Assembly (NCBI GenBank): GCA_023920165.1
Contig: CP089274.1
Coordinates: 3,720,001 to 3,784,000, forward strand
DNA: 64,000 nt
Direction of reading: 5' to 3'
Source: Curvularia clavata
Taxonomy: Eukaryota
Positions 40,149 to 48,532 of the stretch are shown here, one piece after another. The translations under genes and the position numbers were made by a program. A model generated the notes under the pieces. That model was not told the origin of the DNA. It was given only the letters and a program-made list of their open reading frames with translations, and did no database searches. Position 1 is the stretch's first letter. Every line of letters starts with the position of its first letter.

Positions 40149-41693
40149 TTAACCAGCCTGGTACAGACCAAGAGCAACAACATGAGGGTTAATCATGCTG
40201 AGGTTGAAGGGAGTCAGGTACGGGTCCGAGTCGGTAATGGCGACAAACATGGTGTCGTTGGCAGCTGGGTCACCCTGGTAGACCTCACTGGCAGGCTGGT
40301 AGGTGTATCCAGTGTTGTTACCAGTAATCTCCAGAGGAGTGTAGGTGAGGTTGAGTTGTGAAACCCAAGCGACAAAGGCAGGGGCGCCGGCAACGGTGTC
40401 GGTGATGTAGGACATGTTGGGGCCAACAGGCTTGCCAGGGTTCTCCCAGGTGAGGTTGACAAGGCGGCCAGGGAAGGAAAGAGGCTCGCTGCGGTTGCGG
40501 GCGATAGCAGGTCCGCAGGAGTAGCCAGGGTGCTCGGTGCCGTTGATGTTTACACAGCTCTCATCGGCAGAGATGGTAGAATCGGCGGGGTCAGAGACAC
40601 GGTTGCCAGCAACCTCGTGGGGCTTGGTGTCGTTGGGAGAAAAGCGGTTGGGGTTGGGCTGGTTGTCGATGAACAGAGCTGGGAAGTTCTGCCACGCAAG
40701 ACGGGTAGTGTTGGCCGGGCAAGAACTGATGTACGGGGCCAGGAAGGTCCACTGCCAGGACTGAGGAATACCAGTCTCGAACCAGACGGGCATGGGTGGA
40801 AGACCCATCATCTGACGGAAGGAGATTTGCTGGCGGGCCTCGGTGGCGATGGACTGGGACAAGAGGTTGGCAACCTCACGCGAGTCAAGGTGAGCGAGGA
40901 AACCCCAGACACCAGATTCACCCCAGCGAGTGACCTTCATGTTGAAGTCGAGGAATTCACGAACAGTGCGGAAGGGGTAGTCATAGGTGCACTGAGGAGG
41001 AGCAGTCTCGCCGAGCATGTTGGTGAGGAGAGTAGCATGGCCAGTCTCCTGGATAGCCATGAAGGCAATGTAGGCGCGGTCCTCAGCAGTGAGACCAGCA
41101 TCGAGGAAGTCTTGCTCAGAGAAGACGGCAAGACCGTTGTTGAACAGATCAAGCTCAATCCATTCCTGGTACAGACCAAGAGTAATGGACTCGTAGTCAA
41201 AGTCGCTCTCTACCATGTAGCGAGGTAGAGTGCCGTTGGTGCCAAGACCACCAGCGGGCATGTAAGGAATGGGCATGGGGTTCTGGGGCTTGCCATTGGT
41301 GTTGTAGTAAGTGGCGGTTGGGTTTGGTCCCAGAGGGGGAATGACTGTGCCAATGGTGGTAGGGGCCTTTTCAGCTCCGGTAGTAGTAGGGGTACCGGAG
41401 TAGGGGCCATGGCTGGTGGCACCAGTTACATCGGAGCTCCTTCGGGGAGGAGCCGAGCCAGCTGTGGTGGGAATGGCCTACGAAACAATTAATTCAATTT
41501 CATGGCTGGTCTCATCTGATGTACTTACAGGAACCTGGGAGTCAGGACCAAATACCGAAGCTGGAGTGGCAGCTGGGTCAAAGGTGACAGAGAAGCTGGC
41601 ATCGGCATCGGTGTAGCCTGGCACTTGTGGCTTGGGAGCAGCCGCAGCGCATGCCGCAAGCACAGAGGTGGCGAGGAGGCTCTTGGTCAACAT
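40149..41693 (-). CDS. Rds1-like ferritin-like-domain stress protein with signal peptide
   Basis: Signal peptide MLTKSLLATSVLAACAAA; intron 41478-41528; LGLYQEWIELDLF, QETGHAT, RWGESGVWG, IATEARQQ..FRQ. Confidence 0.85.
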
Positions 41694-42786: not shown

Positions 42787-44793
42787 TCATTTTGCACGTG
42801 CCATCGGGCCCCAGTTCTCGCGTGGAGCAAGCTGGTAGCGGACATATTTGCCCCGGTCATGGTCCTTGCCCAGCTTCTCGTCAAAATTGACCTCGAACTT
42901 GGTGTCGAGGTAGGCCGGCACCTGTTCTGTCCCGGCTGTCTCTGACCGATCAGTATTCATTTCTGCATTGTTTGGCAATGCCGGCTCCGCAGCTGCGCTT
43001 CTGGTATAGCCGCTTCCATTGGCCTTTTCCATAATCGCATGGCCCGCACTTCCCTTTTTGAGCGTGTTCTTGAGCGGCGCCCGTTGCCGCACCCATTCGA
43101 GCATAATGTGCCAAATGTCTTTCCACGACGCATCCGTTTTGATCGATCCGGGCTTACAATGGCTCATCGTCACCCTGAATCCCGCATGCCGTAGTGCACC
43201 ACGCAGTGCAGCTAATGGTGGTGCTGAGCAGTGGACTACTTTGGCAACAGAACTCGGTATGAAGAAGAAGGGATGGTGGTCTATCTCTGCAGGGTCGGCC
43301 TTGGGAATAAGCGGATCGAGAACCTCTGTCCTTTGTGCGCCATTCTTTTCCAGCTTGACTCCAAACGTAATTTCCTCCAGAGCCGTGTGCAGCATGCCCT
43401 CTATGCGGTCCATGGTCGGGTACGTCTGCCTGTCAACCTCGTTCAGCTGTGCTAGTACCCTTTCGACAAAGCCCACGTTGTGCAGTGGGCCACCATACAT
43501 CGGTCCCGAGAGGTGGGTCTTATGGCCGCAATGTTCGCAGTGTTGGTCCGCGGACGGCCCCTGAGCGAAGCCATGCTTATACATTGGGTCGCCGTTCTTG
43601 TTCTTGGTCACCTTGTTTCGTGCAAGAAACTGCGTAGTCCAGGCGCCACAGCCGCTTTCGCAATGGTACACGATCATCGTCTTGCCAGCAAGCAGCTTTA
43701 CGTCGTTGGGCGCTTTTCGCACCCGCACAAACACTCGGATGTAGTAGTCGATGGACAGAGAGAGGAGCGGTTCAATTGCCATGCCGTATCGAGCAGCCGA
43801 AGATGCGATGGCATGTAGGATTAAACGCAGTCCACCCTCATGGCACGGTTCCCCCTTGAACGGCAAGCCGCCATATTGCGAGTACGTCTTTTCCAAGTAG
43901 CCATGGGACGCGAAGATGGCAGAGTCAGTACAGGTGACGCAGAGCAGTCCGTCGTCGTTGATGGCCTGAATGGCGGCATCGATGAACGGGGCTGCGGTGC
44001 CGTACGGATCCAGGTCAATAACATCATAGCCTTTCTTGTCGCAGAAGCTATACATGTAGGCGATAGCGTTGCCTGTATTGGCTGTGATGGTGTCTTCCAG
44101 CCTGTTGTGCTTGACGTTGAGCTTGATCGAGTCTACTGCGTTTTGGGACATGTCGTTTGCAGTGACGGCGGTCGCAAAGGGAATTTCTTGAGCGTATCGA
44201 AGCGCGCGAAGGCCGGTCGCAGAGAGTGCGTCGAGGATGCTGAAGGGCGGCTTCCATGAAGTCTTCCCTCCGTCGTGAGCCTCTTCCTCGTTGCCCTGGT
44301 CTTCAGCACACTTTTGCTTCTTGGAAGGACCCGTATCACTCTGCATTTCGTGGTCCGCAAGCTTCCTCTTCTTGGTCGCCTCCTCCTCAGCACTCGAGTT
44401 TTCGGGTGCTTCTGAGACAGGATCCGCTACCTCTCCTGCTGCACGATTCGCATGCGCCCGCTGTTTCTTCCGCTCGTTCCTCTTCTTGAACCGCTCATGC
44501 TTGTCCAATTTTCGCCGTATGGAATCCTCGCCAAAGGTCTTGATCGCCAACACACTCAGATCGCGATTGAACTGCTGGATAGGATTGTAGAAGACCTGCT
44601 GTTTCTGCGTATCCTCTTTGGACAGCTTAGGGTCGGTCGAAGTAGGAACGCCATGCGGAACCAGGATATGCGCCAGGCCTTCTTTGATGGTGGTATACTC
44701 TTTTCCCTGGTGGGAGATATGCTGGCCGGCCTGGGGCGCCGCATCAATGGTCTGCGCAGTCGCGTCTGTCATGGGGACGTCGTTGGAGGCCAT
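42787..44793 (-). CDS. TRM1: tRNA (guanine-26-N2)-dimethyltransferase
   Basis: VFYNPIQQFNRDLS, ILDALSATGLRALRY, DVIDLDPYG, GLLCVTCTD, HEGGLR, Cys clusters, ENWGPMARA; single exon. Confidence 0.95.
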   Translation of the reverse strand: MASNDVPMTDATAQTIDAAPQAGQHISHQGKEYTTIKEGLAHILVPHGVPTSTDPKLSKEDTQKQQVFYNPIQQFNRDLSVLAIKTFGEDSIRRKLDKHERFKKRNERKKQRAHANRAAGEVADPVSEAPENSSAEEEATKKRKLADHEMQSDTGPSKKQKCAEDQGNEEEAHDGGKTSWKPPFSILDALSATGLRALRYAQEIPFATAVTANDMSQNAVDSIKLNVKHNRLEDTITANTGNAIAYMYSFCDKKGYDVIDLDPYGTAAPFIDAAIQAINDDGLLCVTCTDSAIFASHGYLEKTYSQYGGLPFKGEPCHEGGLRLILHAIASSAARYGMAIEPLLSLSIDYYIRVFVRVRKAPNDVKLLAGKTMIVYHCESGCGAWTTQFLARNKVTKNKNGDPMYKHGFAQGPSADQHCEHCGHKTHLSGPMYGGPLHNVGFVERVLAQLNEVDRQTYPTMDRIEGMLHTALEEITFGVKLEKNGAQRTEVLDPLIPKADPAEIDHHPFFFIPSSVAKVVHCSAPPLAALRGALRHAGFRVTMSHCKPGSIKTDASWKDIWHIMLEWVRQRAPLKNTLKKGSAGHAIMEKANGSGYTRSAAAEPALPNNAEMNTDRSETAGTEQVPAYLDTKFEVNFDEKLGKDHDRGKYVRYQLAPRENWGPMARAK

Positions 44794-45381
44794 GATGAGT
44801 GTGGTGTGAAATGCGCGAAGAAAAGAACTACCGGTGGCCCATGCTCTATGGAGGGTGATGGGATGGGTGCGCAATCCACATATACGGCGGATCCAGGGCG
44901 TTGCAGAGGCCAGCTTTGGATTCGAGGGCGCAGTCCGGGCAGGTGAATGACTGGATGTGTGCTTGGCTGGGCTTTGGTCGCGTCGAGCTCCAAAATTTTG
45001 GCTTCGGAGTTAAGCTCCACTAGCCCGACGCTTCCCCACCACGGTGCATGTCGCGATGCCCATCTCGAGTAACGCCTGGCTGTCATGTGAAAGCGTGTCG
45101 TCGTCTGCCAGCACAGAACAGCCTCTGGTCGCTATCGTCAAGCCATGGAATGCGAGTGGCAGAAGCAAACGCTTGGCGTTTATCAGAATCCTTCGCACTC
45201 CAATATGTCAGCGGCTGCCTAAATATGGCGCGGCGCTGTGGCGTTTTGCTGCGCCCGCCTGATACTGACAAGCGCGAGTATCATCTTCCCTTTTCTACCT
45301 CTCCACTCGCTGCTGTATTGGTTTCGATACACCTCTCTCGCTACATCTCCCTCGCTGTTTCGCTCATTCGTACACATCACA

Positions 45382-46656
45382 ATGGGCAGGCCTACCCATC
45401 CTCCGCCCAGCTACAGCGACGACCCTGACGCCGTTTCGCTCCACACTACACCAGACGACTACGCCTACACCGACCTACCAGAGCCTTCTAGCCTGCCTCC
45501 CTCCTACACCGACAGCGAAGCCAGCAACAATGTCTCTGCTCCACAGATCCCCATCCGCCATGTCACGCCGCCCACAACCTGGACCGACCACAGCCGCCCC
45601 AGCTTCAAGAATGGCAAGCCCAGCGTAGTCGAAACCGTTAATGTCATGGAACGCGCGTACGATATCGATCCAGCAGACCTCGAAAAAGCCCTTCAGTCAT
45701 ACGCCAACACATCACCGGTGCCGCTCGTCTACATCATGGGCACGCACAAGGAGACCGTCAGGAAGAACGACAAGAAGGAGACGCAAGAAATCACAGACTT
45801 CCGCATCGTCCTCAATCTCCGCCGCTACATCCACCCCAACTTTGAAGAATCAAACGCCTCCACCATGTCTCTCACCACCGCCCCCAACAGCGAGAAAACC
45901 TACCGTGGCACCATTCTCAAACAGCGCGCGCCGGGCGTAAAACAAGACATTGAAATCAACAATGCACCACCACCCACGCTCACGGAATGGTGCCACCGAT
46001 ACTGTGCCTCCGCTCGTTCCCTCCGCATCTTTCGCCTTCGCCGCCAAGTCACCGGCTTCGACCAGACTTACGTGAAAAACCGCATCGAAGGCCTCATCCG
46101 CTCGACAAACTACCGCGGCACCATCAGCATCACTTTTCCCGTCGAGCAGAAAAACGTTGACATCTACAGCTGCACCCGCATCAACACTCTCCGCCTCAAG
46201 GCATGGGTGTGCTGGCTCTTCTATCTGACCTTTCTCTGGATCTTTTCCTGGCCGTTCCTCTTCTTCGCTACAAAACGTTACGCTATCGTGCGAGCCCAAT
46301 GGCCATTTTCGACTGTCGATGAGGTCGGGAATAAGTGGTATACGACTATCAGTGAGGAACAGTGGCTTGAGACGTGGCAGGTAGCGATTCGTCGACTCGC
46401 ACTTGACCGGTTTCAAGGCGAGGCAAGCGAGGAGATGATGCGGGGCGTCATGGAGAGGCCTGAGGATCCAAGGATGCCGGGCACCTTGCCGGAAACAGGA
46501 CATGCCGGTGTTGACGGGGCGTTGAGTATGTTGAGTGAGGGTGTGAGAGTTGCGCGGGCGATCTCCGGGAATAGGGGGCTGAATGTGAGTTTTGGAGGGG
46601 CGAATGTCAGTTTTGGGGCAGGAAATGCACAAGGCGGGTGGGGATATGATTGCTGA
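45382..46656 (+). CDS. Conserved-looking fungal hypothetical protein with PPxY motifs and one hydrophobic TM region
   Basis: 424-codon ORF from ATG 45382; PPSY x2; ITDFRI, EWCHRYC, TNYRG, WLFYLTFLWIFSWP, C-terminal GGWGYDC. Confidence 0.8.
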   Translation: MGRPTHPPPSYSDDPDAVSLHTTPDDYAYTDLPEPSSLPPSYTDSEASNNVSAPQIPIRHVTPPTTWTDHSRPSFKNGKPSVVETVNVMERAYDIDPADLEKALQSYANTSPVPLVYIMGTHKETVRKNDKKETQEITDFRIVLNLRRYIHPNFEESNASTMSLTTAPNSEKTYRGTILKQRAPGVKQDIEINNAPPPTLTEWCHRYCASARSLRIFRLRRQVTGFDQTYVKNRIEGLIRSTNYRGTISITFPVEQKNVDIYSCTRINTLRLKAWVCWLFYLTFLWIFSWPFLFFATKRYAIVRAQWPFSTVDEVGNKWYTTISEEQWLETWQVAIRRLALDRFQGEASEEMMRGVMERPEDPRMPGTLPETGHAGVDGALSMLSEGVRVARAISGNRGLNVSFGGANVSFGAGNAQGGWGYDC

Positions 46657-46760: not shown

Positions 46761-47870
46761 TCACACCCACTCCCAGACCTCCTCGACCCCCCACTCAAAC
46801 CCCCCAAACCTAACCTTCCCTCCCACAGCCAACACTTCGCCTCGAAAACACACAGCACAAGGCAAAAACGCCTCTCCAATCCTGACCTTCCTCTCCCATT
46901 CTCCCTCTCCGTCATCCCTCTTCACCCACTCCCACCGCTCAACAGTCGTCTCTGCCCCTTGCATCAAAATCCCCTGCACATACTGTCCCACGCGCACGAC
47001 CACACCTCTCACACCCGCATTGTCATTCTGACACCTCAGGACAACGCAAACCTTGCTTTCGCCCTTTCCACCCCCCGTAGTACTCATAGCCTTGACCTCC
47101 TCGTCCCGCCACATCTCCTCGTGCGTCTTGACCGCGTCCAGTGCAGGATGAAACGCGTGGCCTACTTCAAGCGTGAGATCTGCCTCGATGGGATACATGT
47201 CGCCTTCGTCTACCGGTATGTCGGGATCTCCGACGGGAAAGCGTGAGTCGAGCCAGTGTGTCCAGGTGGAGTGCGTTACGTTTTCCCAGCCACCCTCCTC
47301 ATCTTCTGGTGATGGTTTGGGGACGGAGGTTGAAGTCCCGGCAAAGGCCCATTCTAGGCGCTGAGAGGAACCGGGATTCGCGCCAGAGATGGCGGGCGTG
47401 GAAAAGGGCTTGTAGATGCGGATGTCGACGAAGGTGCGGAGAGGGCTGGTGAGCACAAGTGTACTGGTCGGCTCAAATTGCTGAGTGGGTAGGTTCAAGG
47501 GGTTGCGATCAGGCAGGTTGATGGAGTAGGGGATGGGGGTGCCGGCGGGAAGCGGGTATGGCAGGAAGTAGATGTATTCGCGCACGCTGATGTTAGAAGA
47601 TGAGCCGTCGGTATTCTGGGAGGTCGGGTAGTGGAAAGGTGTGGCAGTGGCATCGAGATGAGATGATTTGTCTGTGTGCAACAGGCCTGGTGAGGAGGTG
47701 TTATTGCTGCTGGTTGAGGAAGGCATGTTGGAAGCGGAGTCTGGAGGCGTGTAGATGATGTCGCTAGAGTCGCTCGTAGTGCCGACTGAGACTTCGTTTG
47801 CATTGCCTTCTCTGTTTGCAGATGCGTCTAAGAGCGGCAATTTCTTCTCATCTTTGTTTTCGGTAGCCAT
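46761..47870 (-). CDS. HRI1: Hri1-family protein with N-terminal extension
   Basis: ISVREYI, EPTSTLVLTS...FVDIRI, LEWAFAG, WTHWLDSR, DEGDMYP, TLEVG, EEMWRD, GVVVRVGQYVQGI. Confidence 0.8.
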   Translation of the reverse strand: MATENKDEKKLPLLDASANREGNANEVSVGTTSDSSDIIYTPPDSASNMPSSTSSNNTSSPGLLHTDKSSHLDATATPFHYPTSQNTDGSSSNISVREYIYFLPYPLPAGTPIPYSINLPDRNPLNLPTQQFEPTSTLVLTSPLRTFVDIRIYKPFSTPAISGANPGSSQRLEWAFAGTSTSVPKPSPEDEEGGWENVTHSTWTHWLDSRFPVGDPDIPVDEGDMYPIEADLTLEVGHAFHPALDAVKTHEEMWRDEEVKAMSTTGGGKGESKVCVVLRCQNDNAGVRGVVVRVGQYVQGILMQGAETTVERWEWVKRDDGEGEWERKVRIGEAFLPCAVCFRGEVLAVGGKVRFGGFEWGVEEVWEWV

Positions 47871-48532
47871 TGAAGCCGGAGTCTGAATCTCAAAGTGAAA
47901 GAGAGGTGCGGACAAATGGGCAACCGCCGTCAGTACTGCCTAGTCAGTCCTGGTAAGACGCAATTTGAAGGGATCTGATTGTGAATCTGCAATATCGAGG
48001 TGATCAGAAAAGGCGCTATCGCAAATGGTATATTTGATTGTCGGGAGAAACAGGAAGACTCGACATTCATAGATAAGAGTCGAAATGGATTCAAAAAGCA
48101 ACCCGGATTCCAGCACTTGCACCTACTCTTTCTGATGCGGCCGCTTTTAGTTGCCGGATCTTGATCTTGATCCTATACAGGTTTTCGTGGTATACTGACG
48201 TTCGACACTGAAGTTGGGTAGTGATTGCGGAGAAGTTGAAGTGGGGATGATTATGAATCCACGGTCCCCACTAGCACGGCAACAGCCGTCCGTCTTAACA
48301 GCCAACATGCACCCCATGAGCACAAGACCATCGTGAAAAAGCATATTAATGATAAGTCTGAGATTGATATTGTATTACCTACTAATAGTACGCCACCATC
48401 TCCATACCCAAATGCAGTATTGCTACAGTCTATTATAGAACGCTCAAAGGGGTATCAACTAATCGACACAAAGCACAAAACAACACTCACAGCGCCCTGC
48501 TCCAAACCACAACTGCGTCTCACATTAACATT

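Follow-up and report, generated by a model that had tools for sequence, protein, structure and literature searches.

A conserved CUG codon as the predicted start of a mitochondrial form of Trm1 in Curvularia clavata and its relatives, with a four-codon uORF nested in the presequence

Yeast GRS1 and ALA1 use non-AUG start codons. TRM1 of S. cerevisiae and S. pombe is one gene that yields a form with a mitochondrial N-terminal extension and a short nuclear form (PMC10652106; PMC2115826). The parts of PMC10652106 that deal with these isoforms attribute them, in both yeasts, to alternative transcription starts, and describe a short leader of ~10 nt for S. pombe TRM1 and short forms that also modify mitochondrial tRNA. 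In the DualNCC genes (Cryptococcus ArgRS and LeuRS, yeast AlaRS), a near-cognate codon in a strong context starts a form with a presequence and a strong AUG follows downstream; in synthetases, weak AUGs and near-cognate codons interchange as first starts between lineages (PMC7049704). The yeast non-AUG 'MTS gain' proteins likewise have a near-cognate start in a strong context, a presequence and a strong downstream AUG (PMC6582344). Non-AUG mitochondrial isoforms are already known as a kind, and a CUG isoform of Trm1 alone would be a new member.

Two other systems have a short uORF in a comparable layout. Vertebrate CEBPA has a CUG/GUG-started extended form, a short +2 uORF inside it and in-frame AUGs downstream, and its isoform ratio is described as set by reinitiation (PMC12507421). 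Neurospora cpc-1, also a filamentous-fungal gene, has a conserved near-cognate in-frame extension and a uORF1 of 3-6 codons, after which reinitiation was described in Neurospora extracts; in Agaricomycetes, the cpc-1 homologues have a near-cognate start upstream of uORF1 (PMC5487733).

TRM1 of Curvularia clavata resembles each of these systems in part. Like yeast TRM1, it appears to make an extended mitochondrial form and a short nuclear form from one gene. However, both yeast starts are AUG and depend on alternative transcription starts (PMC10652106), whereas here the first start is predicted to be CUG, the two starts are separated by a conserved uORF, and the extension is 40 residues long. 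The first-pass annotation of this DNA had cited S. cerevisiae Trm1 as a precedent; the long and short isoforms from two AUGs are as it said, but they are described as coming from alternative transcription starts and not from leaky scanning. The predicted near-cognate start in a strong context, the presequence and the strong downstream AUG are shared with the DualNCC and the 'MTS gain' genes, although no conserved uORF between the starts is reported for these in the relevant parts of PMC7049704 and PMC6582344. CEBPA has the same layout but is an unrelated gene, encoding a transcription factor with a truncated inhibitor from a far AUG and no organelle targeting (PMC12507421). cpc-1 also encodes a transcription factor and has a long leader with a two-uORF switch of the GCN4 type, whereas in TRM1 a single uORF is followed by a 34-nt spacer and the extension is a predicted targeting peptide (PMC5487733).

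The window analyzed here is a 64,000-nt stretch of contig CP089274.1 (positions 3,720,001 to 3,784,000), and all coordinates refer to it. A Pfam domain search identified a minus-strand ORF as Trm1 (PF02005, E 1.2e-113), and its score of 380.6 bits, against a cut-off of 27, places it among the Trm1 tRNA (guanine26-N2,N2)-dimethyltransferases. Its own genome contained one TRM1 match, so a single gene would serve both compartments. The main ORF (42787..44793, minus strand) encodes the short, presumably nuclear form of 668 aa and has its AUG in a strong context. A second in-frame AUG (Met8; 44770..44772, minus strand) has a weak context and might catch late-reinitiating ribosomes; a further in-frame AUG seven codons past the first is found in 9 of the 16 orthologue clusters described below. 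Basic clusters at residues 141-161 (44311..44373, minus strand) are a candidate nuclear localisation signal, in which K142 and R143 are invariant across 34 aligned proteins. Among named homologues, the window Trm1 is placed with Bipolaris sorokiniana (Pleosporales) in a quick tree, which served for placing loci only and in which the Oidiodendron row is badly anchored.

Homologous proteins were searched with residues 25-150 of the stop-to-stop frame, which gave 435 matches, 120 of them listed. In a metagenome scan for TRM1 relatives, the best 80 of 318 matches were kept. Twenty-two of these 80 loci were 55-82% identical; L021 was dropped because its 5′ end was missing. The remaining 21 loci and the window formed 16 orthologue clusters at <90% nucleotide identity, with 54-80% identity between clusters. 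They span the branches with Alternaria, Pyrenophora, Plenodomus, Phaeosphaeriaceae, Didymellaceae, Lentithecium and Pleomassaria, together with the outlying L022. The start search was conditioned, in that a script sought an in-frame [CG]TG-GC 65-95 codons ahead of a fixed anchor. It returned exactly one candidate per sequence in all 22, and these coincide in a DNA alignment made separately. Among the 58 more distant loci, 34 were scored with starts chosen by eye, after 13 near-duplicates, four truncated loci, six of the L061 group and L079, whose anchor failed, had been dropped.

Behind the stop TAA at 45012-45010, the TRM1 frame runs open from 45009 down to 42787, and 72 codons precede the first in-frame ATG at 44793, which bears out the earlier observation that the frame stays open upstream without an AUG. 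Within it, the first-pass annotation had placed the start of a mitochondrial form at a CTG (44911..44913, minus strand) with A at -3 and G at +4, and had proposed an alignment of orthologous 5′ regions as a check. In this alignment, CTG occupied the start position in 16/16 clusters. The -3 position was A in 15 clusters and G in one, thus a purine in 16/16, and +4 was G in all 16; such a strong context, with the codon itself conserved, is characteristic of DualNCC starts. Comparatively, none of 10 coding columns with invariant Leu had one fixed codon (the best reached 11/16), and none of 53 invariant degenerate coding columns had one fixed third base. The fixation of the CTG therefore exceeds that of coding controls and what chance would give (16/16 vs 0/10). 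In L036, the sister of the CTG-bearing L003, the start position is GTG, by which the residue changes and a start codon is kept. Two alternative starts, ACG at 44901 and TTG at 44874, are present where they had been noted, but each is conserved in only 1/16 clusters; the TTG column has CTG in two further clusters.

The listed proteins agree with the earlier view that standard gene models miss a CUG isoform. Of the 120 listed homologues (of 435), 110 start at the downstream Met or at the Met that follows it. The other ten extend further upstream, and in seven of them the similarity reaches back to the Leu-Ala at the CTG position and no further; homologue P0015 reads Leu-Ala-Thr-Leu there. Upstream AUG starts in P0001, P0003, P0006, P0026 and P0039 were considered and rejected, as the sequences are mutually unalignable and look like run-ons of the gene caller.

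The 40-codon extension (44794..44913, minus strand) is a predicted mitochondrial presequence. In the window it has five Arg, no Asp or Glu, and ends in R-A-F-H-T-T-L-I, confirming the composition and the R-x-F-H-T-T end described before. Its frame has no stop in 16/16 clusters, whereas the other two frames have stops in 14/16; an in-frame stop lies 2-48 codons upstream of the CTG. Indels in the 16 clusters preserve the frame, and the stops or frameshifts in relatives that had been named as possible counter-evidence were thus found in none. Over 16 x 40 residues, the extension contains 95 Arg/Lys and 4 Asp/Glu, compared with 39 and 83 in the next 40 residues and with 77 and 34 in the same frame upstream of the CTG. 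Conservation drops at the CTG: by codon position, column conservation is 0.70/0.70/0.60 in the extension vs 0.40-0.51 in the 60 nt upstream (ungapped). A basic, non-acidic segment with a cleavage motif is what a presequence should be. The motif R-x-[FLI]-x-x-[STG], described as the R-10 motif of MPP and then Oct1 (PMC11626719), matches at 44785..44817 (minus strand) and near the end of the extension in 9/16 clusters; cleavage there would put the mature mitochondrial N-terminus at Ser3 of the short form, as predicted from the sequence. Since conservation extends to the codon and its context as well as to the open frame and the pattern of charges, initiation at the CUG is very likely, and we consider it highly probable, judging from these patterns, that this hidden CUG initiates a presequence-bearing mitochondrial Trm1.

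Between the CUG and the main AUG there is a uORF that the first-pass annotation lacked. It is nested in the extension in the +2 frame (44828..44842, minus strand), has four codons and ends with the stop at 44830-44828, 34 nt ahead of the main AUG; its ATG at 44842 is in a strong context (A at -3, G at +4). The uAUG is present in 15/16 clusters, with a purine at -3 in 15/15, and the uORF has exactly four codons in 14/16; a stop four codons on is found in 14 of the 15 clusters having the uAUG. The encoded peptide is variable. A short out-of-frame uORF in a strong context, whose position and length are kept while its peptide varies, is what would be expected of a reinitiation switch. In the Trm1 frame, the A of the uAUG falls on a third codon position, and it is fixed in 16/16 clusters across six amino acids. 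None of 77 coding columns with at least four amino acids was fixed in this way, and two reached 15/16. The Trm1 residue after this column alternates between Trp and Cys, whose codons share only TG, and the T of the uORF stop is fixed in 16/16 across four amino acids. When synonymous codons were resampled with the peptides kept, 1.5 such uORFs were expected per 16, and by chance 35 of 142 ordinary coding windows (25%) had one. The P values computed for the uORFs, here and in the distant loci below, count loci of shared ancestry as independent; they overstate the evidence and carry no weight here.

The spacer from the uORF stop to the main AUG is 31-70 nt across 14 clusters. In L002 the uORF stop is lost, and the uORF runs for 32 codons and overlaps the main AUG. 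In L012/L013 the uAUG is lost and an in-frame AUG in a weak context is gained at extension codon 11. L020 has gained an in-frame AUG at extension codon 32, just past the uORF stop. The 11-codon uORF that the first-pass annotation had reported (44846..44881, minus strand; stop 44848-44846) is present in a weak context as described, but its ATG is conserved in only 4/16 clusters.

Among the distant loci, an AUG-started extension lies in the same place in 27/34, and 25 of these AUGs have a pyrimidine at -3; a first start of CTG or GTG was assigned in 7/34, a count that is circular because these codons were picked on context. At the downstream AUG, -3 is a purine in 32/34. On TRM1, then, the first start switches between weak AUGs and near-cognate codons from lineage to lineage, as is described for synthetases (PMC7049704). 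A strong short uORF lies between the starts in 19/34 distant loci, vs 4.3 expected, and 15/34 are without one; in the corresponding chance control, 65 of 358 coding windows (18%) contain such a uORF. The uORFs are concentrated in a clade of 15 rows that includes the named Leotiomycetes. In 12/15 of these, a uORF of 1-8 codons with a purine at -3 is nested inside the presequence in the +1 frame, after a weak first AUG. Its ATG lies 43 nt past the first AUG in L031, L037-L039, L044, L045, L047, L049, L052, L057 and L077, and 46 nt past it in L078. Four of the Leotiomycete-clade uORFs are a minimal AUG-stop. In L051, a near-duplicate among the distant loci, the uORF has 15 codons and not four. 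Beyond this clade, 7/19 distant loci have a strong short uORF, with none in the Cladosporium-like loci. Because frame and offset differ between the two clades, the Pleosporales and Leotiomycete uORFs would seem to have arisen separately. Six loci (L061, L065, L066, L068-L070) show only a short open frame upstream of TRM1 and no evident presequence, though an intron may be present there.

We also looked at other dual-start genes of this genome, which were named by family and read by eye with introns left out of account. The first AUG was weak in all seven: ALA1 (L087), CRS1 (L089), CCA1 (L083), GRS1 (L100), HTS1 (L092), MOD5 (L082) and VAS1 (L104). None of the seven has a strong short uORF between the starts, and six have no out-of-frame ATG at all before the second start, MOD5 having a weak one. 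Each shows a basic extension followed by a second AUG, and in CCA1 there are three in-frame AUGs, the last two of them flanking a basic cluster. The other synthetase loci (L090, L091, L093-L099, L101-L103, L105-L108) and L085/L086 were left unscored; those of them that were inspected showed no two-start arrangement. TRZ1 and TRM5 were left out of the set, as their second start is ambiguous. In the TRZ1-like gene L088 (G000:C5, upstream of 3112698, minus strand), the first in-frame AUG stands 330 nt ahead of the domain match. Several out-of-frame ATGs follow it, one of them in a strong context with 11 codons, and the gene probably contains an intron. TRM1 may therefore not be unique in its uORF arrangement, and TRZ1 could be similar.

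The uORF would bear on how the nuclear form is made. The first-pass annotation had proposed that leaky initiation at the CUG yields the mitochondrial isoform. A CUG-initiated presequence is strongly supported by conservation, but the leaky mechanism is incomplete, as a conserved strong uORF intervenes. The free scanning path from near-cognate codon to AUG that marks DualNCC genes is not found here, a strong out-of-frame AUG lying between the two in 15/16 clusters; plain leaky scanning to 44793 is consequently unlikely. Since the uAUG should capture most ribosomes, the nuclear form needs either reinitiation, which we favour, or a second transcription start. Our best explanation is that a single TRM1 mRNA, with its 5′ end upstream of 44913, would give rise to two proteins. 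A minority of scanning ribosomes would start at the strong-context CUG and make a 708-aa precursor with the 40-residue presequence. This precursor would be imported and cut by MPP and then Oct1, which would leave an N-terminus nearly that of the short form, and the mitochondrial Trm1 would dimethylate G26 of mitochondrial tRNAs. Most ribosomes would bypass the CUG, be captured at the AUG at 44842, translate four codons and stop, and a fraction of them would reinitiate at 44793 (or Met8), which yields the nuclear form. In this way the uORF would throttle the nuclear form and leave the mitochondrial form untouched, and the nuclear/mitochondrial ratio could follow the supply of ternary complex.

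Several observations favour reinitiation. The length of the uORF is fixed short, and shortness would be irrelevant to a pure block; reinitiation is described as dependent on uORF length and spacer distance (PMC5972666). The first starts are weak (25 of the 27 AUG-first distant loci). A strong, short, nested uORF recurs, in another frame, in the 12/15 loci of the Leotiomycete clade, and Neurospora ribosomes are able to reinitiate after the short uORF1 of cpc-1. Other observations speak against it. From work on GCN4, 34 nt is a short spacer for reacquisition of the ternary complex. The uORF of L002 overlaps the main AUG, and L012/L013 lack a uAUG. A strong short uORF is absent from 15/34 distant loci and occurs by chance in 18-25% of coding windows. 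Both model yeasts, moreover, are described as using alternative transcription starts, and their short forms also modify mitochondrial tRNA (PMC10652106). Taken as a whole, with its conservation read from sequence and its steps of initiation, import, cleavage, reinitiation and regulation proposed on that basis, the one-mRNA model of a CUG presequence plus reinitiation has, in our estimate, evenly balanced prospects.

The need for a second start of some kind could also be satisfied by two transcripts, which we regard as a serious possibility but not a probable one. A long mRNA, possibly prone to NMD, would encode the CUG-started mitochondrial form, with the uORF insulating the main AUG, and a short mRNA with its 5′ end in the 49 nt just ahead of 44793 would encode the nuclear form. 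TRM1 of S. cerevisiae and S. pombe is described as working by alternative transcription starts (PMC10652106), the overlapping uORF of L002 would be compatible, and the short spacer speaks against reinitiation. However, an insulator needs no stop fixed four codons on, as is seen in 14/15 clusters, and weak first starts are what one mRNA would need for ribosomes to get past them. The CUG is also preceded by the conserved promoter-like block, which may, however, belong to the divergent neighbour.

Ribosomes might alternatively leak twice on one mRNA, past both the CUG and the uAUG, so that the uORF merely damps output or destabilises the mRNA. This is nearest to the model of the first-pass annotation, and we think it unlikely. 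Leaky scanning is the local norm, to judge by the weak first AUG of the seven other dual-start genes, some lineages do without the uORF, and strong-context uORFs are described as repressing translation and promoting NMD in Cryptococcus (PMC7049704). Nevertheless, a purine at -3 of the uAUG in 15/15 clusters minimises leakage, and the conserved short length of the uORF would have no explanation. Reinitiation, two transcripts and double leakage can coexist.

It is very improbable that the extension is not translated from the CUG at all, being instead a DNA or RNA element or part of an intron leading from an upstream AUG while the short form provides import. Yeast short forms do reach mitochondria (PMC10652106), and the interval is a shared head-to-head promoter. 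Against this reading, one frame only is kept open, indels respect it, conservation is higher at codon positions 1 and 2 than at 3, and acidic residues are scarce. We found neither a conserved splice signal nor an antisense frame behind the conservation, the sequence past the CUG forms no hairpin (mean z -0.1 over the 16 clusters), and the nearest upstream ATG lies at inconstant distances (30-169 nt where present). Runs X5 and X10, guessed to be RNA and used as assembled contigs, each span 44300-45700 as a single contig with neither gaps nor joints, which speaks weakly against a constitutive intron; run X17 covers 11/30 bins, the extension not among them.

The interval of ~590 nt upstream of TRM1 is shared with a divergent gene in head-to-head orientation (45382..46656, plus strand), which encodes 424 aa with no Pfam match. 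This neighbour lies upstream of TRM1 in 12 metagenome loci, with 58-69% identity in full-length matches, and not in the Pyrenophora-like L003/L004/L036. A partly conserved promoter-like block (44977..45014, minus strand), 64-101 nt upstream of the CUG, contains an A4T4 run and an ACGCG core, which we take to resemble RRPE and MCB elements. At the intergenic position 45180, runs X5, X10 and X11 have T>G relative to the window. Further ORFs on the minus strand are 46761-47939, with an HRI1 domain (PF16815) and a frame open well upstream of it, and 40149-41477, with a ferritin-like domain (PF13668).

In a search of mostly open literature, which locus-tag tables would escape, we found no description of a CUG start or a nested uORF in filamentous-fungal TRM1. 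TRM1 does not occur in the main texts of PMC7049704, PMC6582344 and PMC12718117 or in one supplement file of PMC7049704, and the relevant parts of 10.1101/2022.03.25.485750 concern TRM112.

If the CUG is used as predicted, a deeply conserved CUG start would be added for a tRNA-modifying enzyme, and TRM1 gene models across Pleosporales, including those of major crop pathogens, would be corrected, given that 110 of the 120 listed homologues are without the presequence. The surprising part is the nested uORF, by which a layout like that of C/EBP occurs on a housekeeping, dual-targeted enzyme in two fungal classes and in different frames. The three elements within 120 nt (CUG, uAUG and stop) offer a test case for reinitiation versus alternative transcription starts in partition to an organelle, and the pattern of CUG plus nested uORF can be screened for in other dual-targeted genes. 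We suggest tentatively, and with rather more doubt than confidence, that the nested micro-uORF is a reinitiation switch that sets the split between nucleus and mitochondrion, that it arose at least twice on TRM1 and that it may be general in dual-targeted genes. If this were true, tRNA G26 dimethylation would move from one compartment to the other in response to eIF2-alpha phosphorylation or reinitiation factors.
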